Below are positions 42,915 through 64,000 of a stretch of 64,000 nucleotides of DNA, in pieces. Position 1 is the stretch's first letter; each line of letters opens with the position of its first letter. The notes below the pieces were generated by a model that saw nothing but the letters and a program-made list of their open reading frames with translations, ran no database searches and was not told the DNA's origin. The position numbers and the translations under genes were made by a program. The stretch is from Mycobacteriales bacterium. Its GTDB lineage: Bacteria > Actinomycetota > Actinomycetes > Mycobacteriales > Pseudonocardiaceae. The stretch covers positions 6,434 through 70,433 of the forward strand of contig JBBSGM010000001.1 of the NCBI GenBank assembly GCA_038254065.1, read 5' to 3'.

Positions 42915-42988
42915 GCCGCCTTAGCTCAGTCGGTTAGAGCGACGCACTCGTAATGCGTAGGTCTGGGGTTCGACTCCCCAAGGCGGCT
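42915..42988 (+). tRNA. tRNA-Thr (anticodon CGT); CCA encoded at 42989-42991
   Basis: Hand-folded cloverleaf: acceptor GCCGCCT/AGGCGGC, D stem GCTC/GAGC, anticodon stem ACGCA/TGCGT with loop CTCGTAA, T stem TGGGG/CCCCA with loop TTCGACT. Confidence 0.95.
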
Positions 42989-43098
42989 CCATTCTTTTCC
43001 CAGGTCAGCGGCTCGTAGCGGCTTTCTACGTCGCATGAGTTCCCGGCGGCTGGCATGAGTTGTGGCATGTCGTCGGTCCATCGGCCTACTGTCGCGGC

Positions 43099-44637: not shown

Positions 44638-45536
44638 TGGCGCGCGACATCTCCCCGTCAGCCCTTCAGCTCCGACTGCCGTCGCCGCTCGAAACTCTCG
44701 ACGATGACCGCCTCAGCCGGCACGGGGTCCGGGTCATGCTCAAGCGGGACGACCTCATTCACCCGGGCATCCCCGGCAACAAGTGGCGGAAGCTAAAGTA
44801 CAACCTCTTCGACGCAGCAGCGTCCGGTGAGCAGACACTCCTGACTTTCGGCGGCGCCTACTCGAACCACATTCGTGCAGTCGCGGCCGCCGGATACCAC
44901 TTCGGGTTCACGACCATCGGCATCATCCGCGGTGAGGAGCACTTGCCCCTGAACCCGACGCTCGGCTTCGCCGTCCGCCACGGGATGACGATCGACTACC
45001 TCGACCGAGCGACCTATCGCGACAAGACCGACCCGACTGTCGTCGAAGGACTGCACCGCCGCTTCGGCGACTTCTTCCTGCTCCCCGAGGGCGGGAGCAA
45101 CGCAGCCGCGGTGCGCGGCGCGGCGGAGATCTCGGCCGAGCTGCCACCTGACTATGACGTCGTCTGCTGCCCGTGCGGGACGGGCGGGACGCTAGCCGGG
45201 CTCGCGGCCGGCCTTCCTGCGGGCAAGCTCGCGCTCGGTTTCGCGGCACTCAAGGGGGCCGGCTTCCTCGTCGACGACGTGACGCGCCTTCAGCGGGAGT
45301 ATGGAACGGTGACTGAAAATTGGAACATCGAGCTGGACTACCACTTCGGTGGCTTTGCCCGCCGTAAACCCGCCCTGGACGCGTTTATGGCCGACTTCCG
45401 ACTCCGACACTCAATTGACCTAGAGTGGGTGTACGTTGCGAAGATGCTCTACGGCGTATTCGACTTGGTCGAGCGCGGCTGGTTCGCCGCCGGTACAACG
45501 GTCGTCTCGGTCGTCACGGGCCCGGCTTTACCTTAG
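44637..45536 (+). CDS. PLP-dependent enzyme of the ACC deaminase / D-cysteine desulfhydrase family
   Basis: ATG 44637 overlaps the int stop (TGATG). PLP-lysine motif PGNKWRKLKY, plus GGAYSNH and CPCGTGGTLAGL. Confidence 0.75.
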   Translation: MARDISPSALQLRLPSPLETLDDDRLSRHGVRVMLKRDDLIHPGIPGNKWRKLKYNLFDAAASGEQTLLTFGGAYSNHIRAVAAAGYHFGFTTIGIIRGEEHLPLNPTLGFAVRHGMTIDYLDRATYRDKTDPTVVEGLHRRFGDFFLLPEGGSNAAAVRGAAEISAELPPDYDVVCCPCGTGGTLAGLAAGLPAGKLALGFAALKGAGFLVDDVTRLQREYGTVTENWNIELDYHFGGFARRKPALDAFMADFRLRHSIDLEWVYVAKMLYGVFDLVERGWFAAGTTVVSVVTGPALP

Positions 45537-45744
45537 CCCGGGCTTCACCGGATTGATCATGTAGCGACACGGTGGTCCTGGATGCGTAAAGGTGCCTGCT
45601 CAGCTGCGTCCCCAAAGCTCAGCGTATGTCCAGCGCGACTTTGATGACCCACCTGAGATTGATCTGCATCTCTCCGATTGGCATTTCGACATGGTCACGG
45701 CGGTTGAATTGAGTCCAGCGAGGACACGTATCCGAGAATCGCCA

Positions 45745-46272
45745 TCATTCTCCCGTAAGCCTCACCGTGTAGTCAGTTAGGCGCTTGCCTAGGGTCGGTA
45801 GGTCAAGCTCGACTCGCACTGCTTCAAGGTACAGATCTATTAGTTCTTGGGAAGGCTCCCGGATGCTATACCACTCTTCGATCGTGAATTGCCCTGTCCG
45901 TGCTGACTTAAATAATTCGTTCACTTGGTGGTCAACGTCGCGGGCTAATGCTGCGGTAGCAGGCGCTCCGTGCATCCATACGGCAATTACCGCTCGGTTC
46001 CACATGATGCCTGCCTGCCGGGCGTCCTCAATCCGATCGGCGGTTTCATCGGAGTCGAGACTCGTCAGCGCCACGCGTCGCATCGCCTCTCGCAGTACGA
46101 AGTACTCGGATGCTAGGTCTTGGTAGCTCCGAACTCGTCGTTCGCGGAGGTCCTTCTCTCGTTCCTGTCTTGTGTCGAGTCGCCGGCTAACAACGATTCC
46201 CGCAATGGTGGCCGCTGCAGAGGTGACTGCTGCTGTGACTCCGAATAGGGCAAGGAGGAGTTGCTGATTCAT
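45745..46272 (-). CDS. Hypothetical N-terminally membrane-anchored protein (175 aa), low-G+C cargo
   Basis: TM helix LLLALFGVTAAVTSAAATIAGIVV followed by a helical, charged domain. Its codon usage differs from the host genes. Confidence 0.5.
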   Translation of the reverse strand: MNQQLLLALFGVTAAVTSAAATIAGIVVSRRLDTRQEREKDLRERRVRSYQDLASEYFVLREAMRRVALTSLDSDETADRIEDARQAGIMWNRAVIAVWMHGAPATAALARDVDHQVNELFKSARTGQFTIEEWYSIREPSQELIDLYLEAVRVELDLPTLGKRLTDYTVRLTGE

Positions 46273-46299
46273 TGGGAATCCGATCGAATCTGGTCGGTG

Positions 46300-46884
46300 C
46301 TAGCGTGTACTTGTAGAGAACGATTGAATGCGGGGGTGCAGAATCCGATGCGCTTGGGCCTCACCTTGGCTACTGCCGAATGAGGACAGGCTTCCAGTCT
46401 GCGCCTTGAGTCTCTTCCAAGCGCGACTTGTGCCAAGTGTCGGATTCCGTCGCTTCAGATGAATGGCAGCTTTTCGGGCGAGCCACTCCGCATGTAGCCA
46501 CTGCTCGGGCTTACTCCAAGCGTTTCGCCTATCCTCAACGAACGGTTGCAGGACCACGTATATGTGAACGAGCTGAGGAGCCCAGAATCTAAACAATGCT
46601 CGTTGAGCGATATGTCCGTTAAGAGTAAGAAATCCAATGTGACTGAACTGCCGAAGAACTGCCGTAGCAGTTTCGATCTCGTCCGGGGTCAAACTGGCGA
46701 CAGGCTTGCCTTCAAGCTCAAACGCGGCTGCGCGGAAATGGACACTGTCAGGTGACCACAAGGTTGCCAAGGTCTGACTTGAAACGTTTCCATGAATACC
46801 TCGACGAGCTACCATCGTCTGTGCGCTTGATATTGTGACGGCCAATACAGCGACGATGAGTGTCGAGAAATTTTCGACTGCCAT
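46300..46884 (-). CDS. Hypothetical N-terminally membrane-anchored protein (194 aa), DUF4760-like by recollection
   Basis: TM helix FSTLIVAVLAVTISSAQTMV. The core AVLRQFSHIGFLTLNGHIAQRALFRFWAPQLVHIYVVLQPFVEDRRN resembles DUF4760. It lies 27 nt upstream of the 175-aa gene on the same strand. Confidence 0.5.
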   Translation of the reverse strand: MAVENFSTLIVAVLAVTISSAQTMVARRGIHGNVSSQTLATLWSPDSVHFRAAAFELEGKPVASLTPDEIETATAVLRQFSHIGFLTLNGHIAQRALFRFWAPQLVHIYVVLQPFVEDRRNAWSKPEQWLHAEWLARKAAIHLKRRNPTLGTSRAWKRLKAQTGSLSSFGSSQGEAQAHRILHPRIQSFSTSTR

Positions 46885-47455
46885 GTCTGGCTCCTAACGT
46901 CAATTCGTCGACTTGAGACCTTGGCATCGGAGTATGCGCCCTAGTCTCCGGCAGGTGCATCAGCCTTGATGTAGGTTTGAGGTTTGAGGTACTTGCAGGG
47001 CGGGCGGGGGTTCATCCAGCCGACTGGGCGGGACTAGGCAGGCGTTCGCGACGGTTCTGTCGGTTACCAGCCCGAGCGGGTCAACTTCGCCGTACGCCTG
47101 GCACCACTTGAGTTGGCTCGTAGAGGTCGCCAAATCGGCATGCATACCTAGGTGAGCAGGAGGCGCTCATGAACGCTGACCTAGGAGACTGCCGCGACGG
47201 CATTGTACGTGCGCACCGATGATCTACCGAAAGCCGCGCTGCGAAGCATATTTAAGCTGGCCAGGAAGCGGGAGTTCAAGGATTGAAACCCGGGCTCGGG
47301 TTCCTGCTTCAAGATGTAGCGAGTTGTGTCGCGTCTGGCTGGGCGGCCGCTCAAGAGTTACTTAATGAGCGTTTGGGTTGGGGGTGTACCATTGGTACAA
47401 CGGCAATTGGGCTTCGTTACATAGCGGTTGCTTGCGCTGCGTTCTGTCGCTAAGA

Positions 47456-48505
47456 CTACTTGGACTCAAACTTCTTGAGCGTACGGCGATCGAGGGAACG
47501 GGATTCGAGTTTCAGATCCCAGTCGCCATTGTTGATCTGAAACCGTTTGCCGAATCCGAGCCAGCGCCCCGTCAGCTGGCCGCCCGACGGCGCGACGAGG
47601 AACTGGAGGGCACCTCGATACACCGCACCCTTGTAGTAGCCGTTCGGCGAGGTCCGCTCCTCCCATGATCCCGTCGCTGTCATGCCGTCAACCATCAGGC
47701 TCATGCCCAGCTCGGACCCCGACGATTGCGGGAGGCTCTCGACAGTGACCGATGCTCCCTGCTGCCGCAGCACGACGTAGTGGATATCCGAGAAATCCTT
47801 GCCGCGCCCGTTGCTGTAGTACGAATACTCGCTGCGCCAAACCCCGGACAGGTCCACGACGCCGCTATGGATCGGAGGCTGCGCTGCGGCCCCGGCGATG
47901 CCGTCAGGATCGGCTGGCTGCGCTGCGGCGAGCGTGAGGGCGAATCCGAGCTTCAAGAGCAATGAGCGTCGATCGAGCGCCGAGTCGAGCTGAGCTGCCC
48001 ATGTTGCCGTTTCGCGGGCCAGTTCTTGAACGTCTGTCAGTTCGAGTCGCGTAACAAGTGCGCTTAGTGCTCCACGCCTGTCGCTTGAATCGCCGGTCGT
48101 TGTCACCATCGCGGGCAAGTGTGCCATGTCCGATCGGGCGCGGAAAACCACGTCCTCCGGGCGGTGATCGGCCGCGTCCGACAACAAGTCCACTACGTGG
48201 CAACTGTAGATGTCGGCGAGCTTGGTCAGGACTTCCAGCGACGGCGTATATCCGGTCGACGCCGGCCATTTCTCCCAATACGAAATGTTCTTGAATGTCT
48301 TGATGTCGTCCGGCCAGCGCTCGTTCCATCGGTCGGCGACGTCGCCCTGGCTCCAGCCGTGCGCGAGCCGAAGGGCGACGCGTGCGTTCACGCTGTACTC
48401 CCGTCGGAAGGCCGCTGCGACCTCACCCCACGTCATGCCGTCCGCCCGCAGCATCTCGGCGTGCTGCGCCTGCGCCTGCTTCTGGCTCCGGACTCGGACA
48501 GGCAT
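47456..48505 (-). CDS. XRE-type HTH regulator with uncharacterised C-terminal beta-rich domain
   Basis: N-terminal HTH region (VALRLAHGWSQGDVADRW...SLEVLTKLADIYSCHVVDLL). The C-terminal ~130 aa (SGVWRSEYSYYSNGRGKDFSDIHYVVLRQQG...) show no motif I recognise. It is divergent from the xis operon. Confidence 0.7.
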   Translation of the reverse strand: MPVRVRSQKQAQAQHAEMLRADGMTWGEVAAAFRREYSVNARVALRLAHGWSQGDVADRWNERWPDDIKTFKNISYWEKWPASTGYTPSLEVLTKLADIYSCHVVDLLSDAADHRPEDVVFRARSDMAHLPAMVTTTGDSSDRRGALSALVTRLELTDVQELARETATWAAQLDSALDRRSLLLKLGFALTLAAAQPADPDGIAGAAAQPPIHSGVVDLSGVWRSEYSYYSNGRGKDFSDIHYVVLRQQGASVTVESLPQSSGSELGMSLMVDGMTATGSWEERTSPNGYYKGAVYRGALQFLVAPSGGQLTGRWLGFGKRFQINNGDWDLKLESRSLDRRTLKKFESK

Positions 48506-49233: not shown

Positions 49234-49751
49234 GCGCGCCGGCCCTGACCCAGGACCCGGAGCTGACCGTGGGCGAGATCGGTGGTCACGCGGTCGTGTT
49301 CCGCGGGGCGCACCGCGATGTCAACCCGACGCCGATCACGACGGGCGTGGTGTTGCGGGTGCCGATGTCACACGAGGACGTCGAGGCGATGTTCTGGCGG
49401 ATGTTGCGCGATCAGGGGGTGACGTTCGCCGACCTGGACGACGACACGACCGCGTGCTGGTTCTTGCTGGACGCGATCCTCGGCGCCGGCGTCTCTGGAC
49501 TCGACTGCTACCGCGACGCGTTGGCTGCGGTTACGCCGGCCGATCCGGACTATGCCGCCGTAGCGCGGCTGCGCCGCCGTGTCGTGGCGTTGATCGGCCC
49601 GCATCCGCGACGGCGCTGGCGCGGCCGGCCAGGGTGTGGGGAAGGGAGCCGCGGCGGCCACCGCGCTCCCCTCCTGATCTCCCAGACGACCAACCCGTTG
49701 GCAGGTACATCGGCGCCGGATGAAGGCCGAGTCTTTGGGGACGGGCCGTGA
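49230..49751 (+). CDS. Hypothetical ICE protein
   Basis: 173-aa ORF coupled to both neighbours. No motif recognised. Confidence 0.45.
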   Translation: MSAPALTQDPELTVGEIGGHAVVFRGAHRDVNPTPITTGVVLRVPMSHEDVEAMFWRMLRDQGVTFADLDDDTTACWFLLDAILGAGVSGLDCYRDALAAVTPADPDYAAVARLRRRVVALIGPHPRRRWRGRPGCGEGSRGGHRAPLLISQTTNPLAGTSAPDEGRVFGDGP

Positions 49752-50470
49752 TGGCCGGCCCGCGCGTGCTGCACGGCCTGCTCGCGATCGTGGCCGCCGC
49801 CGCCGCGGTGTTGTCGTTCGCCGCGCTTCGGGATCTCGCCCTGGTGTGCGGGTTCGCCCCACAGTTGGCGTGGCTGCTGCCGGTCGTGGTCGACGCAGGC
49901 GCCGCGGCCGGGTCGCTGGTCTGGCTCGGTGGCCGAGTCGCACGGCCGGCCCGGCGATTCGCCCGCACTCTCGCACTGGCCCTGCTGGGGTTGTCGGTCG
50001 GAGCGAACGCACTGGGGCACGGCCTCTCCGCGTTCGGGCTCGCGCCGGCGTGGTGGGTCGTCGTAATCGTCTCCGCGGTCGCCCCGGCGGTGCTCGGAGC
50101 GGTCGTGCACCTCGCCGTCCTGGTCGGTCGCCCCGCCTCCGACCCAGACCCGGGTGACCACGTCAGCGGCGACGAGGCGCACGTGTCGATCGGCTATGAG
50201 CTGACCGGCCAGGCCCTCGACGCAGGGCTGCTCGATGAGCAGGGCCTGTCCCGCCGCTGGAACGACGCACTACCCGCTGCTGGCGCCGACACGTCCGACG
50301 GACGGGCAGCCGAGCTGATCGCGGCCGGTGCCGGCCGGCGGCGACTCGCGCGCGAGCTGGACATCAGCGAGTACGAGGCCCGCCGGCTGCTCCGCCGGAC
50401 CCGCCCCTTCGCCGCCCCATCACCCGACGCGGCGCCCGCCGCGCCTTCGTTGAACGGAGTTCCGTCATGA
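49748..50470 (+). CDS. DUF2637-like membrane protein with C-terminal HTH-like tail
   Basis: Four TM helices (LLAIVAAAAAVLSFAAL, LAWLLPVVVDAGAAAG...). The tail reads GRRRLARELDISEYEARRLL. Family assignment is by recollection. Confidence 0.6.
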   Translation: MMAGPRVLHGLLAIVAAAAAVLSFAALRDLALVCGFAPQLAWLLPVVVDAGAAAGSLVWLGGRVARPARRFARTLALALLGLSVGANALGHGLSAFGLAPAWWVVVIVSAVAPAVLGAVVHLAVLVGRPASDPDPGDHVSGDEAHVSIGYELTGQALDAGLLDEQGLSRRWNDALPAAGADTSDGRAAELIAAGAGRRRLARELDISEYEARRLLRRTRPFAAPSPDAAPAAPSLNGVPS

Positions 50471-52614
50471 ATGTTCCGACCTTGTTGTTCTTCCTGGCCG
50501 CCGTAGTGACCGCACGGTGGGCGTGGCGCCGCGGCGCCCGCGTCCTCGCGATCGGCGCCGCTGCGACGGCCGGGTTGTTCGCCGTGTCGCTGTGGCAGTC
50601 CACCCACCCCGTCGTCCTCGCCCTCCTCGTCGCCGCCGCTGCGGCGGTGGGGTGGCGGCGCTATGGGTCGACGGTGGCGGTGGTGACCCGGTGGGGCTCG
50701 GCGATCCGCCGCAAGTCCGGGGTGGCGTCCTCCTGGGACATCGCCCGGTATGTCGGGCCGGTGGCGATGCGCCGCCGCGGCCCGATCATGCGCCCCTCCC
50801 TGCGCCAGGGCCGCCGGGTGGATCGGTGGCGGCAGCTGTTCACCCTGCCGGTGACGGAGGTCGCGGTCCGGTTGTGCCGGGTGGGTCGCCGGTGGGTGTG
50901 GTGCGCGGTGGAGGAGGTGGTGCTGATCATCGGCGGTCCGCGCAAGGGCAAGACCCAGCTGTTGGGCGGGGAGATCATCGATGCCCCGGGCGCGGTCATC
51001 GTCACCTCTACCCGTACCGACCTGCTCGATCAGACCGGGCCGCTGCGCGCGGCGAAGGGCCCGGTGTACGTGTTCAACCCGGTCGGGCTGGGGGAGCGCC
51101 CCTCGACGGTGACGTTCGACCCGCTCACGGGCTGCCAGAACCCGGTGACCGCGGCGGAGCGGGCGACGGACATGCTCGCCGCCGGCGACGGCTACGGCGG
51201 CCGGTCGGGTGACCGCGAGTTCTGGGACGACCAGGGCCGCCGCAACCTGGCCGCCCTGATGCACGCCGCTGCGCTGGCCGGGGACCTGACCATGCTCGAC
51301 GTCTCCCGGTGGCTGTCGGACCTGGACGGCAACGCCGCGCAAATCGTCGGGCTGCTGCGCAACCTGTCGCCGGAGCCGGCGTTCGAGGCCTCGGTCGCCC
51401 AGTTCATCAAGACGAACCCGAACACCCGCACCTCGATCACCTCGACGATCTCACCCGCCCTGGCGTGGCTGACCCACAAACCAGCCCAGGCCGCCGCGCT
51501 ACCGGCCCGCCACGGCGGGCACCCCCTCGACGTCGCGGCCCTGCTCGCCGAAAGCGGCAGCGTGTTCATGCTCGGTGGCGAGGAGGCGCAGGTCGCCCCG
51601 CTGGTGTGCGCGATGACCGGGTGGATCGCCCGCGAGGCCCGGCGCCTGGCGGCGTTCTGCCCCGACGGGCGGCTCGATCCGCCGCTGTCGTTGCGCCTGG
51701 ACGAGTGCGCACTGATCTGCAAGGTGCCGCTACACCAGTGGACCGCCGACATGGGCGGGCGCGGCGTGTCGATCGTGGCGTGCTTCCAGTCCCGCAGCCA
51801 GATCATCGACCACTACGGGCAGGCCAAGGCGGCCACGATCATCAACAACGCGGGCCCGAAGGTGCTGTTCGGCGGCACCGGTGACCGCGACGACCTCGAT
51901 TTCTGGTCCAAGCTGGCCGGGGACCGCGACGAGCGGATCACCACCACCGACATGCACGGCCGGGTCGCCTCCCACACGGTGCGCCGGGTTCCGGTGTTGG
52001 CGCCCTCGCAGCTGCACACCCTGCCACCCGGGCGGGTGGTGGTGTTCACCTCCGCGGTCGCGCCGATCGTCGGGCGCACGCAGCAGGTGAAGGACCGGTT
52101 CGACGTCCGCGCTCACCACACCCCGGACGTCGTCGCGGTCCGAGCCCGGGTCTGGGCCCGTGACACCGCCCGCCGGTCGGGCGCGTGGCTGGGGCAGCAG
52201 GCCAGCCCGGTCTCGGCTGCGCTGCTCGGGCTCATCGTCGGAGCGACGTACGGACAGCTGGGCGCGGTCGCGATCGGGCAGGTCCCCGGGTGGGTCGGTG
52301 GACTCGCCGGCGCGGCCGTCGGCGTCCTGGCCGGGCTCCTGGCGCAGCACCTCGCGGTCACCGCCTGGCGCCGGTGGCGGGCACCGCTCACGGCCTGGAT
52401 CGTCCGCCTGCTTCGCCCCGCGATCGCTTGGACGGTCGCCCGGGTCGTCTGGCTGCGGGCCCGGCTGTTCGGGCGCGGCGGAGCCACCCACTACCAGCCC
52501 TTCAACGGGCCCGACCCGGTCACCGAGCCCATCCCGGTCATCGCGGCCCTGCCCGCCGCGCCTGACCGGTCCCGCTGGGCGCCATCCCCGCCGGTCGTCG
52601 ACGACGCGCCCTGA
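50467..52614 (+). CDS. Type IV coupling protein (VirD4/TraG/TraD family)
   Basis: N-terminal TM helices, Walker A IIGGPRKGKTQ and Walker B LSLRLDECALI, followed by GRGVSIVACFQSRSQI. Extra hydrophobic helices occur near the C-terminus. Confidence 0.85.
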   Translation: MNVPTLLFFLAAVVTARWAWRRGARVLAIGAAATAGLFAVSLWQSTHPVVLALLVAAAAAVGWRRYGSTVAVVTRWGSAIRRKSGVASSWDIARYVGPVAMRRRGPIMRPSLRQGRRVDRWRQLFTLPVTEVAVRLCRVGRRWVWCAVEEVVLIIGGPRKGKTQLLGGEIIDAPGAVIVTSTRTDLLDQTGPLRAAKGPVYVFNPVGLGERPSTVTFDPLTGCQNPVTAAERATDMLAAGDGYGGRSGDREFWDDQGRRNLAALMHAAALAGDLTMLDVSRWLSDLDGNAAQIVGLLRNLSPEPAFEASVAQFIKTNPNTRTSITSTISPALAWLTHKPAQAAALPARHGGHPLDVAALLAESGSVFMLGGEEAQVAPLVCAMTGWIAREARRLAAFCPDGRLDPPLSLRLDECALICKVPLHQWTADMGGRGVSIVACFQSRSQIIDHYGQAKAATIINNAGPKVLFGGTGDRDDLDFWSKLAGDRDERITTTDMHGRVASHTVRRVPVLAPSQLHTLPPGRVVVFTSAVAPIVGRTQQVKDRFDVRAHHTPDVVAVRARVWARDTARRSGAWLGQQASPVSAALLGLIVGATYGQLGAVAIGQVPGWVGGLAGAAVGVLAGLLAQHLAVTAWRRWRAPLTAWIVRLLRPAIAWTVARVVWLRARLFGRGGATHYQPFNGPDPVTEPIPVIAALPAAPDRSRWAPSPPVVDDAP

Positions 52615-55715: not shown

Positions 55716-56219
55716 ATGCCCGCAGACGACACCGGCCGCACGGCCGGAACGAAGGCTACCGCCGCTGAGCTGATGGACGCGCGCCGTCCGAGTGAGCGCT
55801 TCGCCGCGTTGACGCTCGCCGCCGCGCAGCGTGACCTGCGGGTCGCGCTGGCGTCGAACCCGGAGGAGATGGCCGGATGGGCGCGGCACCCGGAGGAGCC
55901 GCCGTGGACCGACCCCGTCGCCGAGTACGTGGCGTGGGTGGTGCGGATGGTCGAGGCCGAGCGGCACGCCCGCGCCGGCGCGGTGTCGTCGGTACGGGCC
56001 TGCGAGGACTACGACCGGAGCCACGACCGGGCGGTCGGGCCGCTGGCTGCGGTGATCGCTGCGGCGATCCGCCGAGCGCGGGCCGCGATCTCGGCGATAC
56101 TCGGCTCGAACCCGGTCCTCGCGCAGAGGGCGCGCGACGACGTGCTGAACGGGTGGCCGGAGGACGACCGGCTCGCAGTGCTCGCGCTCGACGCCGGCCC
56201 GGCTGAAGAGGCGCGCTGA
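55716..56219 (+). CDS. Hypothetical protein preceding the relaxase (possible relaxosome accessory factor)
   Basis: 167-aa ORF with an AAGGAGG RBS. Its stop overlaps the relaxase ATG (TGATG). Confidence 0.45.
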   Translation: MPADDTGRTAGTKATAAELMDARRPSERFAALTLAAAQRDLRVALASNPEEMAGWARHPEEPPWTDPVAEYVAWVVRMVEAERHARAGAVSSVRACEDYDRSHDRAVGPLAAVIAAAIRRARAAISAILGSNPVLAQRARDDVLNGWPEDDRLAVLALDAGPAEEAR

Positions 56220-59200
56220 TGTTGTCCGTGCACCGGGGGCACTCAACCCGCTACCTCACCGACGAGGTCGCGAAGGCCCGGGAGGGCTACTACACCGGCG
56301 CGGTCGCCGCGGGCGAGCCGCCCGGGCTGTGGTGGGGCGCCGGGGCGGAGGCGCTTGGGCTGTCCGGTGAGGTGGACGCCGACCTGATGGAGGCCGTCTA
56401 CACACGCCTGCTCGACCCCCGCGACCCGGCCGCGCACGACCGTAAGACGTGGGACGAGGCCGCGATGCTGTCGCCCGGGCACCGCAAGTACAAGACCGCG
56501 GAGGAGATCTACGCCGGGCTGCTGGAACAGCACCCCGACGCAGGCCCGGCGCAGCGGGCGGAGCTACGGGCGCAGGCTGGGCGGTCGGCGCGGCAGCCAG
56601 TGGCGTTCATCGACGTGACTGTGTCCCCTCCGAAGAGCGTCACGGTGGCTGGGTTGGCGTTCGAGCGGGCCGCGACCGAGGCCCGCGAGCGTGGCGACAC
56701 CGACGCCGCGCAGGCGTGGGACGCGCATGCCCAGGCCGTGGAGGACGCGCTGATGGCGGGCGCCCGCGCGGCGCTGGAGTATTTGCAGGAGCACGCCGGC
56801 TACGCCCGGGAGGGCCATCACGGCGGCGGCGCGGGCCGCTGGATCGACGCCCCCGCCTTCGTGGTGGCCCAGTTTCTGCAGCACGATTCGCGGGAGCGGG
56901 ACCCGCAGTGGCACATCCACCAGGCGATCCTCAACCGTGTCCTCTGTGCCGATGGGGTCTGGCGGGCGCTGGACGGGAAGCTGATCGACCTGCATAAGCC
57001 GGCCGCGGCCGCGTTGTGCGAGCGGGTCATCGAGGCCCACCTGGCGCAGTCGGTGGGGTTGCGGAGTGAGACCCGCCCGGATGGGAAGGCGCGGGAGGTG
57101 ATCGGGGTCGACCAGGAGCTGATGGACCTGTTCTCCTCCCGCCGCGCGCAGATCACCCCTAAAGCCGCCGCGCTGATCCGGGAGTTCGAGGCCCACAACG
57201 GGCGCCCACCCTCCCCCTACGAGCGGGTTGTGATCCACGAGCAGGCCACGCTGGTGACTCGCCGCGCCAAGTCCCATGACGGGGAGACCCGCACCGAGCA
57301 GTTCGCCCGGTGGGAGGAGATGGCCCGCACCCGCGTCCAAACGGGTTTGGCCGAGGTCGCCGAGGCGATCCTGGCCCGCAACCGGGACGTCGGCCCGGTG
57401 GCGGAGTTCTCGCCGCTGGATGTGATCGAGCGGGCCGTGGAGTCCCTCGGTGCGGCCCGCGCGCACTACACGCGGGCGGACATGTTCAAGGCCGTCTCCG
57501 ACGCACTCCCCGGGCATCTCGGGCTCGCCCCCGATGAGGTGTTGCCGTTCCTGGACGGGATGACCGACGCCGCGATGGACCGCATCCAACGCCTCACCCC
57601 CGCCGAGGACACCCACGACCTCCCCGACGAGCTGCGCCTGGCCAACGGCGCTCCGGTGTATGCGCGGCCTGGGTCGGCCCGCTACGCCACCCCGGGCGGG
57701 CTGGCCGCGGAGAAGGCGGTCCGCGCCTCCCTGGTGGAGCGGGGTGCGCCCACTCTCACGAGAGGGCAGGTGGACGCCGCTATCGCCCGGTTCGCCGAGT
57801 CCGGGATCACTCTGGGCCCCGACCAGGAGGCCGCGCTGCGCGGGGTCCTGACGTCCGGGGCATGGGTCGAGACCATCGTCGCCGCGGCCGGCACTGGAAA
57901 GTCGTTCGTCGTCGGGGCGATCGCCGACGCCTGGGCCAACCCACCCACCACCACGGGCGGGACGAACGACCCGTCGGGCGGGCAGGAATCGCCCGGGGGC
58001 CGGGTGTTCGGCCTGGCGCCCTACCAGAACGCCGCCGAGGTCCTTGCCGGCGAAGGGCTGCGCACGAAGAACGTCGCCGCGTGGCTCGCCACCCAGGCCC
58101 GGCTCGACCGCACCCGGCCGGGCCAGACCGCCACCGGCCCGAACGGCGACGACGAGACGTGGCGGCTGCGGCCGGGGGATCTGGTCGTGCTCGACGAGGC
58201 CGGGACCGCCGAAACCCCGGCCATCCGCGAAGTCCAGCAGCGCTGCCGCGCCGCCGGCGTCAAGCTGGTGCCGGTCGGTGACCCGGGCCAGCTCTCCACG
58301 ATCGGGCCCGGCGGTGCGCTGGCCGACATGGCCGAGCACGGCATCTGCTACCAGCTCTGCGAGGTGCGCCGCTTCACCCACGCGTGGGAAGGCCCCGCGT
58401 CCCTACGGCTGCGCGATGGCGACACGTCGGTGCTCGCCGAGTACGCCAAGCGCGGCCGGATCATCGACGGCGGCACCGCCGAACAAGCCGAAACACTCGC
58501 GTCGCGTGCCTGGCTCGCCGACACCCTCAACGGGCGCGAGTCGCTGCTGATGGTCGCCACCAACGACGCCGCCGCCCGTGTCTCGAACCAGCTCCGCGCC
58601 GAGCTGATCCAGCTCGGCCGCGTCCAGGAGGACGGGGTGCCGCTGGGCGAAGGCCCGGAGTTGGCCGCCTGGCGCGGCACCGTCGCCGGGGTTGGTGACC
58701 TGATCCAGGCTCGCGCCCTGGCCTGGCACCTGCGCGGGTTCGAGGGCAACACGACCGCCCCGATCACCCGCAAGACCTACCGGGTGATCGCCACCCGCGC
58801 CGACGGCGGGCTGACCGTCGCCCCGATCCTCGACCGCGCCCAGCCCGGCGCCGAGGTCGACGCCGAGAACGGCGCGGTCGAACGCAACGAGTGGGGCGAG
58901 CAGCTCGGGCCGGTCATGGCGCTACCCGGCTCCTACGTGCGCAACCACGTCTCCCTGGGTTACGCCTCCACGAAGGACGCCGCGCAGGGCCGCAATGTTG
59001 ACACCGGGCACAACGTCGCCGGCGCCGGTGTCGACCGCGCCGGGCACTACGTCATGTCGACCCGGGGCCGCGACGCCAACACCACCTACGTCGTCACCCG
59101 CCACCTCGCACCCGATGCCGACACCGGCGAGACGTTCGACTCCGACGCCCGCACACCGGAGGCCGTCCTGGCCGACATCCTCACCGTCGACAACGACGGG

Positions 59201-60841
59201 GACCGCTCCGCGCTCGCCGAGCAGGAGGTTGCCGAGGAGCTGGCCGCGTCGACGATGACGCAGATCGACCGGATGGCTGATGTGATCCGCGAGGTCAACG
59301 CCGGCCGGCTCGCCGCCACGCTCGATCGGCTCGCCGCCGACGGGCACCTCAGCGGGCACGACCGGGCCCGGATCGCGGCCGACGACGCGTTCGGCACGGT
59401 GGAGCGGCTGCTGCGCACCGCCGAACTCGCCGGTCACGACCCGGCCAAGGTCCTGACCGCCGCCGTGACCATGCGCGGGCTCGACGACGCCACCTCACCT
59501 GCGCAGGTCCTGCACCACCGTATCGCCACCCGCCTGACCGGGCGGCTCACCCCACGTGTCCGCACCGGGGCGGCCGATCTCATCCCGCACCACCTCCGCA
59601 CCGACCCCGCCGACATCGACGCCGCTGGCGCCGGCCTCAGCCCGCGTGACGCACAGCGCGGCGCGCTGCTGCGCCGCTACGCCGAGGCCGCCGACGAGCG
59701 CCGCAACGAGCTCGGCGCCCGCACCGCCGCCCAGCCGCCCGCGTGGGCGATCGACGCTCTCGGCCCGGTTCCCGCCGGCGACGACGCCGCGTCGGTTGTG
59801 GCGCGGCAGGAGTGGGAACACCGCGCGGGCTGGGCCGCGGCCTACCGCGAACTCGTCGGCCACACCGACGACCACGACCCGCTCGGCACCATCCCGGGTG
59901 GTGCCCGGGTCGAGCATCGGATGATGTACCGCGCCGCGCACGACGCCCTCGCCCTGCCGGAGGCCGGCGACGAGGAAGCCGGCATGACCGACGGCCGGCT
60001 CCGCGCCCGCATCGCCGGTTACGAACGCGAACGCGCCTGGGCGCCGCGCTGGGTTGAGGACGACCTCGCCGCCGCCCACGAACGCCGCCAGCGGCTCGAC
60101 GCCGACGCCACCATGTGGGATGCCCGCGCCGCCGCACCCGACACCGCCCCCGACGATGCCGCGCAGCTGCGCGCCGACGCCGCTCGAGCCCGCGCCGACG
60201 CCGCGCAACTCGCCGAACAGATCGGCGACCTCGAGACCGCCGACGCTGCGTGGGCGCAGTGGTACGCCCACACCGCTGTCACCCGAGACCACGCCGAACG
60301 CTCCCGCCACGAACTCCGCGCCCGCGGCGTCGACATCGCCAACCCACCCGACCGCACCACCCCCGCCGAGTGGCTCGACGCCCACCGCGCCGCCCAAACC
60401 AACGACGAGCAGCACGCCGCCGTCACCGAGGACGACATCCGGGACGACCCCGACCAACGCCGCCAGGTCGACGAACTGCGCGAGGAGCAGGCGGACCATC
60501 TGGACGACGACCGGGCGGGGCCCGCCGTCGTCAACGAGGCCGCGGAGACCGGGGTGCCCGACATCCGTGAGACGGCGGAGCCGGACCCGACCGAACGCGC
60601 CGACCCCACCGTTCGGCGGCGAGTCCGGACGCTCGAAGAGACCACGCAATCGGTGGTGAGGGCACAGGAGGCCCTCACGGAGATTGCGGTCCGCCGCGCC
60701 GCCGAGGCCCGCGCGGCAGCCGAGGCCCACGCCACGGCAGAGGAGGAGGTCGGCCGCCGGGACGAGCTGAACCGCTGGGACGCCGACGGCGACGTCGTCG
60801 AGACCGCCGAGCAGCACGACGAGCCCGCGATGGAGCGCTGA
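56219..60841 (+). CDS. MobF-family relaxase/helicase (TrwC/TraA-like)
   Basis: The N-terminus ...AREGYYTG...WWGAGAEALGLSGEVD closely parallels TrwC. His triad HDSRERDPQWHIH, RecD-like helicase P-loop AAAGTGKSF and LVVLDEAG are present. The last ~580 aa form an Ala/Asp/Arg/Glu-rich tail. Confidence 0.92.
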   Translation: MLSVHRGHSTRYLTDEVAKAREGYYTGAVAAGEPPGLWWGAGAEALGLSGEVDADLMEAVYTRLLDPRDPAAHDRKTWDEAAMLSPGHRKYKTAEEIYAGLLEQHPDAGPAQRAELRAQAGRSARQPVAFIDVTVSPPKSVTVAGLAFERAATEARERGDTDAAQAWDAHAQAVEDALMAGARAALEYLQEHAGYAREGHHGGGAGRWIDAPAFVVAQFLQHDSRERDPQWHIHQAILNRVLCADGVWRALDGKLIDLHKPAAAALCERVIEAHLAQSVGLRSETRPDGKAREVIGVDQELMDLFSSRRAQITPKAAALIREFEAHNGRPPSPYERVVIHEQATLVTRRAKSHDGETRTEQFARWEEMARTRVQTGLAEVAEAILARNRDVGPVAEFSPLDVIERAVESLGAARAHYTRADMFKAVSDALPGHLGLAPDEVLPFLDGMTDAAMDRIQRLTPAEDTHDLPDELRLANGAPVYARPGSARYATPGGLAAEKAVRASLVERGAPTLTRGQVDAAIARFAESGITLGPDQEAALRGVLTSGAWVETIVAAAGTGKSFVVGAIADAWANPPTTTGGTNDPSGGQESPGGRVFGLAPYQNAAEVLAGEGLRTKNVAAWLATQARLDRTRPGQTATGPNGDDETWRLRPGDLVVLDEAGTAETPAIREVQQRCRAAGVKLVPVGDPGQLSTIGPGGALADMAEHGICYQLCEVRRFTHAWEGPASLRLRDGDTSVLAEYAKRGRIIDGGTAEQAETLASRAWLADTLNGRESLLMVATNDAAARVSNQLRAELIQLGRVQEDGVPLGEGPELAAWRGTVAGVGDLIQARALAWHLRGFEGNTTAPITRKTYRVIATRADGGLTVAPILDRAQPGAEVDAENGAVERNEWGEQLGPVMALPGSYVRNHVSLGYASTKDAAQGRNVDTGHNVAGAGVDRAGHYVMSTRGRDANTTYVVTRHLAPDADTGETFDSDARTPEAVLADILTVDNDGDRSALAEQEVAEELAASTMTQIDRMADVIREVNAGRLAATLDRLAADGHLSGHDRARIAADDAFGTVERLLRTAELAGHDPAKVLTAAVTMRGLDDATSPAQVLHHRIATRLTGRLTPRVRTGAADLIPHHLRTDPADIDAAGAGLSPRDAQRGALLRRYAEAADERRNELGARTAAQPPAWAIDALGPVPAGDDAASVVARQEWEHRAGWAAAYRELVGHTDDHDPLGTIPGGARVEHRMMYRAAHDALALPEAGDEEAGMTDGRLRARIAGYERERAWAPRWVEDDLAAAHERRQRLDADATMWDARAAAPDTAPDDAAQLRADAARARADAAQLAEQIGDLETADAAWAQWYAHTAVTRDHAERSRHELRARGVDIANPPDRTTPAEWLDAHRAAQTNDEQHAAVTEDDIRDDPDQRRQVDELREEQADHLDDDRAGPAVVNEAAETGVPDIRETAEPDPTERADPTVRRRVRTLEETTQSVVRAQEALTEIAVRRAAEARAAAEAHATAEEEVGRRDELNRWDADGDVVETAEQHDEPAMER

Positions 60842-60854
60842 ACGGCAGCGCCCA

Positions 60855-61463
60855 TCACAAGGCCACAGGTCGGGCCGGCGCCGGCGTGGCCTCGGCAAGC
60901 TGCCGTCGCACGTGGGCGCACCAGCGCTGCGCCTCGGCCTGGTTCCGCGCCCGCCACCGCTGGTCCACCCGCCGCCACAACGGAGACGACTCGTCCCGCC
61001 GCAGCCCGTACCGCGGACCCTGCGGCACGAGCTGCCCGTCCGCATCGCGTTCGGGCAGCTCCGTCGGAGGGTCGGGATGCACCCCGAGCAGCCACGCCAA
61101 CGTGCGCCACACCCCGTGCGCGAAGTCGTCATCGCTGGCGACGCATGGCCGAGGCGAGACACCCAGCTGCGCCCACTCGTCAGCGGCCGGCGGCTCCTGG
61201 TCGGCAGCGACACACAGCGCGACCCAGCTCTCGGCACGTGCCAGCACCCAGCTCGCTGGCTCAGCGTGCCCGGTCATCGGAGCCGGATGCCCAGCAACGA
61301 CCCACCCCAGCGCAGCGCACTGCCCTTGGGCGTGCCGCGAGTCCAACTGCGTAGCCAATCCGTAGGCCGTCCAGTCCAAGTCTGCGACCCGGCGATGGTC
61401 GACCATCACCCACTCCGGAATCACTGCCCGCTCGGCCACGTAACCGAGTATGCGACTGACCAC
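60855..61463 (-). CDS. Hypothetical protein
   Basis: 202-aa ORF convergent with the relaxase gene, with host-like G+C. No motif recognised. Confidence 0.45.
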   Translation of the reverse strand: MVSRILGYVAERAVIPEWVMVDHRRVADLDWTAYGLATQLDSRHAQGQCAALGWVVAGHPAPMTGHAEPASWVLARAESWVALCVAADQEPPAADEWAQLGVSPRPCVASDDDFAHGVWRTLAWLLGVHPDPPTELPERDADGQLVPQGPRYGLRRDESSPLWRRVDQRWRARNQAEAQRWCAHVRRQLAEATPAPARPVAL

Positions 61464-61980
61464 CGACAGAATTCCAGAGAAGATCTGCTCGGATCATCGT
61501 CCCGGCCAGCGGCAACAACAGGGAACAAGAACCCGGGCTCTGCCCGGACCCGGCACCGCTCAGAGATCCGGGGGGATGGTGCGGTAGGTGGTGATCTCCC
61601 CACGGCGCGCCGGAGGCGGCCAGACCGGCGGCCCGGGCCGCAAGCCGGGAAAGAGTGGCTTGCGCCCCGAACCACCGGCCCGGCAGGGGTGAACCCGCGC
61701 CGCGAGGAGATCACAAGCCTTCGGGATTGATCCGGACCTGGAGTCTCGCCAAGTATACATGAACCAGACAGATGGCAGGCATGGCCCGCCAAGGAACTCC
61801 GTAGCCGCGGTTCGAAACGAAATGTCCCGCGCCTAAGCAACTCCGATGGGAACACCCGCGTACAGGATTGCAAAGCACTAGATAGGCGGAGCGGAAAGCG
61901 ATACGACCCCTACACTGAGAACAACTCGCGGACACCGCTCCGCGCGGATCTTATCCGAGCAGACTGCACGCTTTGAGTCG

Positions 61981-63720
61981 CTAAAAGCAGCTAATAAGTG
62001 CGATAGAGGGCTGAAATCCTAGCGCCACGAGGCGCTTCGACTCGGAGACCAAGCTTATTCGCGAGAACAACGGCAAGCTCAAAATCGTACGATTGCGCCA
62101 GTTGCCGAGCAGTGCAAACACAACCTCGACCGCCCCTCGATGGGGCAGAAGCTCTCGATGCAGAGTGTTAATGGCTTCTGCAAGTGCGACGTCGGAACAG
62201 TTGGCGCGCACATAGGCTGCGAGTTGTTCTCTCGCAGGTGTCGACCGCCGCAGGATTTCGCCACTGTTCGAAGCCTGAAGAAACAGGTGACTGAGCGTTG
62301 AAGACTTCCCCTTCCTCTTAACGTGGATCATTGCACCACTCGGCGCCACAAGATCGCTTGCCTCGATACCAGCCTCTCCCTCGACCCGTATCAGCTGGCG
62401 ATCGAGAACTACGAAGTCATGCTGGGCATTTTGTCGGATGTTGTCTAGGTAGTTTGGCTCAGTACCACCACCGTATCGCGGAAACGAGATTTTAGTGTAG
62501 GGCAGGTCATTGATCTGCTGATCAATTGTCCGCACGAACGAGGGATCTACGCGGTAGAAATCGCCATCGTATGCCATGTAGAGGTGGTCATCAAGCTGGA
62601 GCTCCGCACAGAGGCACTCAAGAACTGTTGCTGTGCCGATCTGATTCTGTGATTCGTCAGCGAAGCGAATGATGCTGTCGAGACTCTTTGTGGGAGTATG
62701 GTCCTGTTCGTTCTTGCGAACGTGGAGGGCGATACGGTCAACAGACATATTCAGTGTCGCTGAATTCGAAAGACGTTCTTGCGGGAAGAGGATGTACTGG
62801 ATCGTCCGCGTCTCGTCGGCTTCGAGAAGATCGTCTGGAAGGATGGCATCAAGATTCTCGGGAACCGGTTCTCTTGACAAGAGCGTTGTCAGCTCAACCC
62901 GCAAACGCCGAATAAGCTCTCGATCCTCAACAAGGCGGATATTGTCGATCCAAGGCAATGTTCTGCGATAGTGTTCCAGCCGCGAAGCTTCGACAATCTT
63001 CTTCGAGAATGCATGAAGCGTGTCGATGTCATCTATGTCGGCTTGGAACCGTAAGGATCGACCGCCGAGAATACTTCGCGCAAGCGATGCGTCTTGTGCT
63101 TTCCCGCCAATCGCTGCGATAAGGTCTGCGGACTGATCAATTGGAAAGCCCTCCATCGGGATGTCGCGGGCTGCCCGATGACCGGTCCGCTTAAAGTACG
63201 GTCCGGTGGACTGGTACCTGAGATCTCGAAACTGAGAAGTCTTTCGCCGAGCCGCGCCAGGGGCCGCACCATCGTGTTCGTCATCGTGGATCGGTGGACC
63301 GACGAGCATGTTGAGTGCAACGAGAAGTCCGAACCTCGGATCACTCGCGGAACGTGCGATTACTCGTGAGCCTAGTCCAAATGACCATGCCGCCCACCGC
63401 AGATCTGATTGGCTTTCAAGCAGATTATCGACTGCGCAGAATACGATGCCGCCGTCCGAGCTTGCGATTGCTGGCAGGTCGGTGCCGAAGTTTTGGGCGA
63501 AGAAGACTTGCCATTGAGGCGGCGCTTTAGGGCGACGAAACAGCATGACTATCATATCTCCGCCTACGGAAGCCTCAAGCAACTCCGCAGGTTGTTCGAG
63601 CTCAATCAGCGTAGAGCCATCCCACTGGCAGACGCGCGGCGCGTACTTAGCCAGGTCCGTTATTGCAGCGAGGGGATTTATACCCACCTTCAGGAGAAAG
63701 GCATTGAGTGGCAGCCGCAT
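61981..63720 (-). CDS. Large uncharacterised protein, DUF6119/TIGR04141-like (by recollection), with PD-(D/E)xK-like motif
   Basis: 579-aa ORF in a visibly low-G+C patch. The N-terminus MRLPLNAFLLKVG and the size fit the sporadically distributed TIGR04141 family. The C-terminal region reads GIEASDLVAPSGAMIHVKRKGKSSTLSHLFLQ. The ORF call is strong; the family call is weak. Confidence 0.8.
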   Translation of the reverse strand: MRLPLNAFLLKVGINPLAAITDLAKYAPRVCQWDGSTLIELEQPAELLEASVGGDMIVMLFRRPKAPPQWQVFFAQNFGTDLPAIASSDGGIVFCAVDNLLESQSDLRWAAWSFGLGSRVIARSASDPRFGLLVALNMLVGPPIHDDEHDGAAPGAARRKTSQFRDLRYQSTGPYFKRTGHRAARDIPMEGFPIDQSADLIAAIGGKAQDASLARSILGGRSLRFQADIDDIDTLHAFSKKIVEASRLEHYRRTLPWIDNIRLVEDRELIRRLRVELTTLLSREPVPENLDAILPDDLLEADETRTIQYILFPQERLSNSATLNMSVDRIALHVRKNEQDHTPTKSLDSIIRFADESQNQIGTATVLECLCAELQLDDHLYMAYDGDFYRVDPSFVRTIDQQINDLPYTKISFPRYGGGTEPNYLDNIRQNAQHDFVVLDRQLIRVEGEAGIEASDLVAPSGAMIHVKRKGKSSTLSHLFLQASNSGEILRRSTPAREQLAAYVRANCSDVALAEAINTLHRELLPHRGAVEVVFALLGNWRNRTILSLPLFSRISLVSESKRLVALGFQPSIALISCF

Positions 63721-64000
63721 GTGACTGTTATCCTGCGCCCTCTCGCCGCCGGGGGTTCTCGTGACGGGTCACAGCATGCCGGAGGGCAGCTTCGAAGTGT
63801 TACTGATCAGTCCCACACGGTTGCGAAGTTACTCCATACGGAGTAATGAGGCGTGCTACCGTGCGGGTAGGGGCCTTGGACGGGCCACAGGCCGGCTTGC
63901 CCGCAGGGTGGCCGTGGCTTCCGCGCGGCCTGGTGTCGACGCGATGCCCAACGCACGCTGGCACATCCCGCCTGTTGTCAGCGAGAATCCGACGATGACC

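Follow-up and report, generated by a model that had tools for sequence, protein, structure and literature searches.

A DUF6119/TIGR04141 gene among the cargo of a conjugative element in a Mycobacteriales bacterium: a candidate immunity gene

Introduction

What might a compositionally foreign gene be doing close to the transfer genes of an actinobacterial conjugative element? The question is raised by a stretch of 64,000 nucleotides of DNA from a Mycobacteriales bacterium of the Pseudonocardiaceae (assembly GCA_038254065.1, contig JBBSGM010000001.1, positions 6,434 to 70,433 of the forward strand), which in its entirety is referred to here as the window. Close to the right end of the window an open reading frame (ORF) encodes a 579-aa protein of the DUF6119/TIGR04141 family (Table 1). 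An original prediction, made from the letters of the DNA, took this gene for an isolated piece of horizontally acquired cargo coding for a putative nuclease with a role in defence or exclusion.

The answer proposed here is a tentative one: the protein may act by itself in conflicts with invaders, its conserved C-terminus being a metal-dependent and probably nucleolytic effector and its N-terminal region doing the sensing or targeting. The family to which the protein belongs, the modularity and extreme conservation of its C-terminal third, and the company kept by the genes of its relatives are the principal supports of this proposal. The chemistry of the module and the relationship of the gene to its neighbors leave room for other explanations, which are taken up below as the evidence that bears on them is presented.

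The gene and its family

The ORF is a real, complete and compositionally foreign gene. Its product matches the Pfam profile PF19614 (DUF6119) at E 1.1e-86 (292.1 bits, against a cutoff of 27), covering profile positions 32-523 of 524, and it matches TIGR04141 at E 1.1e-80 (271.5 bits, against a cutoff of 35); the original prediction, which had named this family, was correct on this point. As read from the translation of the ORF, the protein begins with MRLPLNAFLLKVG and contains the internal stretch FVVLDRQLIRVEGEAGIEASDLVAPSGAMIHVKRKGKSSTLSHLFLQ; the N-terminal and C-terminal stretches that had been quoted earlier are found as given. All residues that are invariant in the family (judged on the columns of a 41-sequence alignment together with 240 canonical proteins) are present. 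On its sequence, then, the protein is an intact DUF6119/TIGR04141 member with the two-part architecture and the length of ~520-600 aa that are typical of the family. As a sequence it is a further member of a catalogued family that has neither an assigned function nor a solved structure, and nothing sets it apart from the rest. Its only match in PHROGs is phrog_18579, a family of unknown function, and DUF6119/TIGR04141 has been remarked in the literature as "commonly associated to mobilomes".

Two public contigs from independent Logan assemblies (L001 and L002), which are identical to the right end of the window and extend past position 64000, carry copies of the gene that are 100% identical to it. 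An alignment-based AlphaFold2 model of the full 579-aa protein has a pLDDT of 88.7 and a pTM of 0.84.

These properties bear directly on one of the alternative explanations, namely that the gene has no function and is a passenger in decay, left over from a horizontal transfer of DNA. Its foreign composition would suit a remnant, as would the fragment of an IS630-family transposase gene lying nearby, just outside the window, and the existence of truncated family members such as a 282-aa copy on a Vibrio plasmid. Against this, the ORF is of full length, spans the whole family profile, retains every family-invariant residue, recurs without change in independent samples and yields a confident structural model. 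A passenger without function is accordingly highly improbable.

An autonomous and nearly invariant C-terminal module

The protein is divided into a large N-terminal region and a C-terminal module of ~195 aa, designated DUF6119C. Conserved residues of the N-terminal region are mostly structural glycine, tryptophan, tyrosine and leucine (W70, G115, G131, G206, G219 and Y251 among them); few are polar. Searches of Pfam, of the PDB sequences and, by profile, of 5.8 billion proteins found no relatives of this region outside the family. The profile search returned canonical DUF6119 proteins as the only architecture, the N-terminal region being found only together with the C-terminal module.

The converse does not hold. 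DUF6119C is an autonomous domain, its modularity being evident from its recurrence behind a different N-terminus, a RelA/SpoT domain, in at least 33 clusters. The AlphaFold2 model of the C-terminal 195 residues on their own has a pLDDT of 94.8 and a pTM of 0.91. A profile of the module, run against 1.84 billion representatives, matches 3385 clusters (at 50% identity) at E <= 1e-3 and 2760 at E <= 1e-10. Among the best 150 of these matches nearly all have the canonical architecture of 525-600 aa or are fragments of it, and the shorter matches are mostly fragments of the canonical architecture at contig edges.

Eleven residues of the module are each at least 98% conserved among the 240 canonical proteins, and together they form what may be an active-site constellation. 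D456, K468, L479 and Q482 are present in 240 of 240; E421 and S477 in 239; E453 and H466 in 238; D440 and S473 in 237; and H478 in 236. The RelA/SpoT fusions provide an informative comparison. In 34 of these proteins the acidic residues are kept, as are H466, R469, S473, H478 and Q482; S477 is usually replaced by glycine and K470 is lost. K468 is kept in only 12 of the 34 (that is, it has been lost in about two thirds). A residue that is invariant in canonical proteins and relaxed where the module sits beside another enzyme behaves as a residue with a part in catalysis should, and less as one that is needed for structure.

Genomic contexts of relatives

Members of the family occur across both Actinomycetota and Pseudomonadota; plasmids carry them too, as does at least one prophage. 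In nine of ten neighborhoods of full-length homologues, the setting is a defense or a mobile one (the ten were picked by hand, and a background rate was not part of the comparison). Occurrence of homologues in mobile or defense islands had been named beforehand as one of the checks on the original prediction, and in this small sample the outcome is favorable in a qualitative sense. A scan of a genome collection with a narrower alignment gave six loci.

The homologue of Actinoplanes sp. TBRC 11911 (L023) is part of a compact defense island, where its neighbors on one side are the cyclase (E 2e-153) and E2 (E 7e-69) genes of a CBASS system together with a Peptidase_M78 gene, and on the other a complete-looking type III Wadjet system (JetC3, E 0; JetD3, E 7e-104). 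In Actinoplanes sp. NPDC051861 the homologue adjoins two integrase genes and a Lamassu-like LmuA/LmuC pair, and in a metagenome-assembled genome of the Actinomycetota it adjoins cas3, cas5d and csd1 of a type I-C system, an IS110 transposase gene and a serine recombinase (resolvase) gene. Another homologue is next to an integrase gene, an HNH gene and a ParB-methylase pair; yet another is near Mrr_cat and HTH_17 genes. Plasmid records with homologues number 24, of which 11 are of conjugative plasmids. On a Streptomyces plasmid the neighbors are a DNA methylase gene and a gene for an LmuB-like ATPase, and the truncated 282-aa homologue on a Vibrio plasmid adjoins a type I restriction-modification system. 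A Pseudomonas prophage carries its homologue at one end, between two integrase genes.

The RelA/SpoT fusions keep similar company: they adjoin OLD-type ATPase/TOPRIM, nSTAND-Trypco, HNH, Schlafen-AlbA and Shedu-like genes, and also integrase, FtsK/TraB and T4 coupling protein (T4CP) genes.

Is the module a nuclease?

The original prediction had pointed to an acidic residue followed, after about 12 residues, by an hxK motif and a helix, and had likened this arrangement to the core of PD-(D/E)xK nucleases. The arrangement itself is there: D456 is followed by H466-V-K468 and then by a predicted helix at 473-492. DSSP assignments on the two AlphaFold2 models give the order of elements in the module as a helix at 421-431 (containing E421), short strands around 436-458 (with D440 and, farther along, E453 and D456), a strand at 464-469 (H466 and K468), the helix at 473-492 (S473 through Q482), two inserted helices, a strand at 532-539, a helix and a final strand. 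In these models the predicted order fits that of the alpha-beta-beta-beta-alpha-beta core of PD-(D/E)xK enzymes, and the conserved residues would occupy the usual positions.

Structural comparison points in the same direction without reaching significance. The weak top matches of the module in the PDB include the PD-(D/E)xK nucleases HamA (twice), PfoI and OkrAI, two CdiA-CT toxins and FAN1; those in BFVD include entries named Endonuclease I, Endonuclease and Restriction endonuclease. The best relevant Foldseek match is HamA (8vxy/8vx9), which at E 0.14 is not significant (probability 0.66, TMq 0.41, 169 aligned columns, root-mean-square deviation 6.2 Å). HamA (DUF1837) is the D-E(X)K effector nuclease of Hachiman, shown as such by experiment, and catalytically inactive versions of HamA-like domains occur in AbpA (PMC12278908). 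It is the closest biologically coherent structural neighbor of DUF6119C: both are alpha/beta modules with a conserved motif of acidic residues followed by x-K, both are found in defense islands, and the inactive form in AbpA has its parallel in the loss of K468 from the RelA/SpoT fusions. The two differ in that there is no sequence similarity between them, and in that DUF6119 proteins have H-x-K in place of E-x-K, lack a HamB helicase partner and possess a large N-terminal region of their own. The predicted helix-strand-strand-strand-helix-strand order of the module, with its predicted placement of acidic residues and lysine on the second and third strands, would match that of standalone restriction-type enzymes such as PfoI, the OkrAI/BamHI-like enzymes, Mrr and T7 endonuclease I. 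DUF6119C departs from these standalone enzymes in having two extra helices, which follow the second core helix and precede the fourth strand, and no methyltransferase partner is conserved next door to it; all of the matches are at E >= 0.05.

A phospholipase D (HKD) reading of the segment H466-x-K468-x4-S473 was also considered, and was rejected: serine takes the place of the aspartate, the motif is present in a single copy, and no phospholipase D fold is found among the top 50 Foldseek matches.

The proposed mechanism can now be stated in full. The N-terminal ~385 residues would sense a signal or select a target, and the C-terminal ~195 residues would be a divalent-metal-dependent phosphodiesterase, most likely a divergent nuclease of the PD-(D/E)xK type. 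D456 would be the "PD" aspartate, H466-x-K468 would stand in for (D/E)xK, and E421, D440 and E453 might serve as additional metal ligands. The protein would act by itself as a defense or exclusion determinant, sensing an invading phage or plasmid and cleaving nucleic acid in response.

A number of results weigh against this proposal. D456 and K468 are 12 residues apart; the acidic residue of the canonical (D/E)xK motif is replaced by His466. Foldseek searches with the domain by itself against the PDB and BFVD gave no match at E <= 1e-3 (the best lying at E 0.05-0.14), and a search of the PDB with the full-length model also gave none at this threshold, returning only weak PAS/LOV-like and assorted matches. 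Searches of the PDB sequences by phmmer and by profile hmmsearch, in which the protein was used both entire and as its two separate parts, yielded nothing meaningful, and a Pfam scan of each half of the protein at E <= 10 returned DUF6119 only. A comparison with known defense systems, which had been suggested along with the original prediction, came out negative: none of the families modeled in PADLOC-DB v2.0.0 matches the 579-aa protein at E <= 1. In a full-text search of the literature the family is named, and nothing on its function was found. The evidence from genomic context is guilt by association, drawn from about ten hand-picked loci rather than from a genome-wide statistic, and one of these contexts (P0027) is uninformative. 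Lastly, variation in the RelA family is concentrated at the C-terminus, so the module could be regulatory instead of catalytic. Support for the likeness to PD-(D/E)xK enzymes is consequently weak: conserved residues and the order of elements fit; the missing significant structural match and the histidine at an acidic position do not. The 579-aa protein may work in the manner of a PD-(D/E)xK nuclease and is nevertheless not filed as a member of that superfamily.

The main rival explanation is kept alive by the RelA/SpoT fusion. It holds that the module handles nucleotides, binding or hydrolyzing either a phosphorylated small molecule, of the alarmone type or another, or a tRNA end that carries a modification. 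A metal would be bound by the acidic residues, and phosphates by the histidine, lysine, arginine and serine residues. The synthetase of the fusion would be regulated or reversed by the module, which in DUF6119 proteins would link a nucleotide signal with the N-terminal region. The only alternative architecture found does join the module to a small-alarmone-synthetase domain with intact catalytic motifs, in a wider family of ~360-aa RelA proteins whose C-terminus is exchangeable and presumably regulatory. A pattern of E/D/E/D together with H/K/R/S is of a kind generally suited to the binding of phosphates and metals, and no significant nuclease fold match was obtained in the PDB or BFVD. On the other hand, the biologically coherent weak structural matches are all nucleases and none is a nucleotide-binding fold; genes for a nucleotide synthetase, RelA/SpoT or another, are missing from the immediate surroundings of most DUF6119 genes; and the proteins that can do without K468 are precisely the fusions, which speaks against a need for this residue in binding the product of the synthetase. 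A nucleotide-handling module is thus considered unlikely, while deserving to be taken seriously.

Foreign composition and the conjugative element

The G+C content is 0.50-0.58 across the DUF6119 gene and 0.72-0.80 in the relaxase region, just as the original prediction had claimed in placing it far below that of its flanks. G+C at third codon positions (GC3) is 0.58 in this gene compared with about 0.9 in neighboring genes, and codons ending in A or T make up 42% of the total compared with 6-9% in the relaxase and coupling-protein genes. The codons ATT and TTT, which had been called frequent, are indeed so (19 per 1000 codons each, against 0.6 in the relaxase and coupling-protein genes); AAA, for which the same was said, is not (5.2 per 1000). 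The extent of the low-G+C patch had also been underestimated at ~2.1 kb: on L001 and L002 the stretch is ~3.4 kb long and runs beyond the end of the window (L001 ~750-4200). Its left edge, as marked by steps in G+C content, is at about 61.7-61.8 kb, inside the spacer downstream of the DUF6119 gene. Flanking direct repeats, target-site duplications and terminal inverted repeats were sought around the patch, and only weak matches at chance level were found.

The window also contains the elements of a conjugative system: a tRNA-Thr gene, an integrase gene, a T4CP gene and a gene for a MobF relaxase. Together these support a conjugative element integrated beside the tRNA gene, with its far end lying beyond the window. 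The relaxase gene was said to be next to the DUF6119 gene, and it does lie close by, one ORF away, the two being separated by a 202-aa ORF (for which searches of Pfam, NCBIfam and PADLOC gave no match) and the 517-bp spacer. An integrase gene beside a tRNA gene, a coupling protein, a relaxase and a composition distinct from that of the core, the marks of cargo on an integrative and conjugative element (ICE), are all found at this locus. The DUF6119 gene is horizontally acquired, its G+C content and codon usage being foreign to the host, and is accessory cargo of the conjugative element; the G+C trough and the four transfer and integration features bear out the earlier description of it in these terms.

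Cargo of this kind need not benefit the host, and the gene might serve the element instead, as an addiction (post-segregational-killing) toxin, an entry- or surface-exclusion factor, or a nuclease directed against competing plasmids and ICEs. Proximity to the relaxase gene speaks for such a role, as do the homologues in plasmid records, nearly half of them conjugative (11 of 24), and the several homologues and RelA/SpoT fusions that adjoin integrase and FtsK/TraB-type or T4CP genes. Yet many homologues are chromosomal, residing among CBASS, Wadjet, Lamassu-like and CRISPR-Cas systems without transfer genes; no antitoxin-like small ORF is conserved next door in the loci examined; and base composition is unlike that of the ICE core, so that the gene does not belong to the set of conserved transfer genes. 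Service to the element alone is therefore judged to be quite unlikely.

A divergent neighbor with the same module

The window ends 280 bp upstream of the DUF6119 gene, and what lies beyond it changes the description of the locus. The gene had been thought to sit alone. It is not an orphan, because a gene sharing its C-terminal module adjoins it: on L001 a divergent gene encoding a 383-aa protein starts ~40 bp past the end of the window. The N-terminus of this protein is a RelA_SpoT domain (E 2.7e-20), and its C-terminal 170 residues match DUF6119 profile positions 352-523, and these only (E 1e-34; NCBIfam agrees). The shared module is 32% identical between the two proteins (residues 364-504). 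The synthetase motifs RxKxxxS..K, DxxGxR, GYxSxH and ExQIR are kept in the RelA/SpoT domain and are invariant in the alignment examined; by sequence, the domain is closest to the small alarmone synthetases YjbM/RelQ, and it matches the PADLOC candidate PDC-S33 at E 8.6e-18. In the wider family of ~360-aa RelA proteins it is the C-terminus that varies, and a metagenome scan with the fusion alignment recovers mostly RelA/SpoT proteins bearing other C-termini.

The neighbor, and only the neighbor, invites comparison with CapRel, a fused toxSAS defense protein (PMC9712102), and with PDC-S33: a single polypeptide combines an N-terminal RelA/SpoT synthetase with an exchangeable C-terminal domain, in defense islands. 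It differs from CapRel in that its C-terminal domain is the DUF6119 module and not the pseudo-zinc-finger antitoxin domain of CapRel, and the CapRel chains in the PDB give no sequence match to it at E <= 0.01. The 579-aa protein has no RelA/SpoT domain and in this respect is unlike the CapRel-type fused toxSAS altogether.

Two adjoining genes with a common module might be thought to constitute an obligate two-gene system, in which the shared C-terminal modules hetero-oligomerize and couple a nuclease arm to an arm that makes alarmones or pyrophosphorylates tRNA. The genes are divergent and share a 319-bp control region, and both are low in G+C. In none of 19 other loci examined (10 of the full-length DUF6119 gene and 9 of the fusion) are the two found together, however, and these include the locus of a 77%-identical fusion in Pseudonocardia aurantiaca, which has no full-length DUF6119 gene. 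A ~115-bp stretch of high G+C content between the genes also fits separate acquisitions. The two-gene system, rejected as the principal explanation on account of the 0/19 co-occurrence, is very unlikely. From the same co-occurrence figure and the high-G+C stretch it is concluded that the DUF6119 gene and its RelA/SpoT neighbor are two independent single-gene modules sitting together, an obligate pair being improbable. In the mechanism preferred here, the neighbor would be a second such module, a toxSAS-like RelA/SpoT enzyme joined to the same C-terminal domain.

A bolder version of that mechanism can be entertained as a long shot. DUF6119 would be a new family of immune effectors that act as single proteins, widespread (at least 2,700 clusters at 50% identity) and equipped with an N-terminal sensor fold absent from the PDB, and DUF6119C would be a portable cassette mounted on at least two front ends, the DUF6119 N-terminus and toxSAS. 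At this locus the two neighbors could hetero-oligomerize, one trigger firing both a nuclease and a toxin directed at translation or alarmones.

The G+C-rich island between the genes (about 72% G+C, at about 63854-63968) lies in the middle of the divergent intergenic region and contains short inverted repeats. Two separate insertions could have left it between them as a piece of native DNA; alternatively, it could be a repeat or have a regulatory role. Outside the window, where the low-G+C patch comes to its far edge, a 102-aa ORF (L001:461-769, minus strand) matches only the N-terminal helix-turn-helix (HTH) of IS630-family transposases; this fragment is near the break of both Logan contigs, about 460 bp from their shared end.

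Other features of the locus

Downstream of the DUF6119 gene, a terminator-like G+C-rich hairpin was located by a pattern scan (Table 1). Promoter and terminator pattern scans of the locus gave numbers of sites not above shuffle expectation, so the evidence for this hairpin is weak; an Rfam search of the whole 6.6-kb locus gave no match. Farther along the spacer, at about 61619-61684, is an imperfect G+C-rich inverted repeat (28 nt, 79% complementary, with a 10-nt loop) enclosed by a local peak of G+C content of 0.80.

A second low-G+C patch (0.53-0.62) is present within the same element at 45200-48500 and may be another cargo island. It holds three minus-strand ORFs, at 45745-46272, 46300-46884 and 47456-48505, of which the second matches DUF4760 and the first and third have no Pfam match. 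The integrase ORF beside the tRNA gene is 525 aa long and carries a C-terminal GntR-type HTH (residues 452-510) in addition to its Phage_integrase domain (residues 210-392); this represents an unusual fusion, or else a single ORF call that runs across two genes. Similarly, a 678-aa ORF at 39611-41647 (plus strand), directly upstream of the gene for the DNA polymerase III delta' subunit, combines major facilitator superfamily transporter domains with a thymidylate kinase domain that comes after them (residues 472-641), and is either a fusion or an artefact of ORF calling.

Table 1. Coordinates of features at the locus (window positions unless a contig is named)
Feature	Position	Strand	Remarks
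tRNA-Thr	42915-42991
ORF with Phage_integrase domain	43060-44637	+	adjoins tRNA-Thr
DUF2637 and T4 coupling protein (T4CP)	49748-52614		Pfam/NCBIfam matches
MobF/TrwC relaxase-helicase	56219..60841	+	Pfam TrwC (E 6.7e-52) and AAA_30; NCBIfam MobF (E 5.5e-48)
202-aa ORF	60855-61463	-	no family match; GC3 0.82, host-like codon usage
Spacer, 517 bp	61464..61980	.	between DUF6119 stop codon and 202-aa ORF; without credible gene, none called in L001/L002
Terminator-like G+C-rich hairpin	61927..61944	-	37 nt 3' of stop codon; L001 4090-4107
DUF6119/TIGR04141 coding sequence, complete, 579 aa	61981..63720	-	stop codon 61981-61983; ORF list and hidden Markov model matches
C-terminal DUF6119C module, ~195 aa, residues 385-579	61984..62568	-	also found fused to RelA_SpoT
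Putative active-site constellation E421...D440...E453-x-x-D456...H466-x-K468-R469...S473...S477-H478-L479-F480-x-Q482	62275..62460	-	within DUF6119C
N-terminal region, residues 1-384	62569..63720	-	family-specific, beta-rich
Divergent intergenic region, part in window	63721..64000	.	whole region 319 bp; layout from L001 gene calls
RelA_SpoT-DUF6119C gene, 383 aa	starts about 64040; L001:843-1994 (-)	+ in window frame	past window end; divergent from DUF6119 gene

Significance

The family at issue is large (3,385 clusters at 50% identity match the C-terminal module) and has had no known function, solved structure or entry in PADLOC v2. That its relatives are found in defense islands, that its C-terminal third is autonomous, nearly invariant and enzyme-like, and that toxSAS-like proteins reuse the same module are together the reasons why a "DUF" label can be exchanged for a testable hypothesis, one that names the residues D456, K468, E453 and H466. 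Should the hypothesis not be confirmed, the gene would be ordinary ICE cargo. Should it be true, DUF6119 would be a new single-gene defense family, and the locus would provide an example of the sharing of a module between nuclease-type and RelA/SpoT-type immune effectors.

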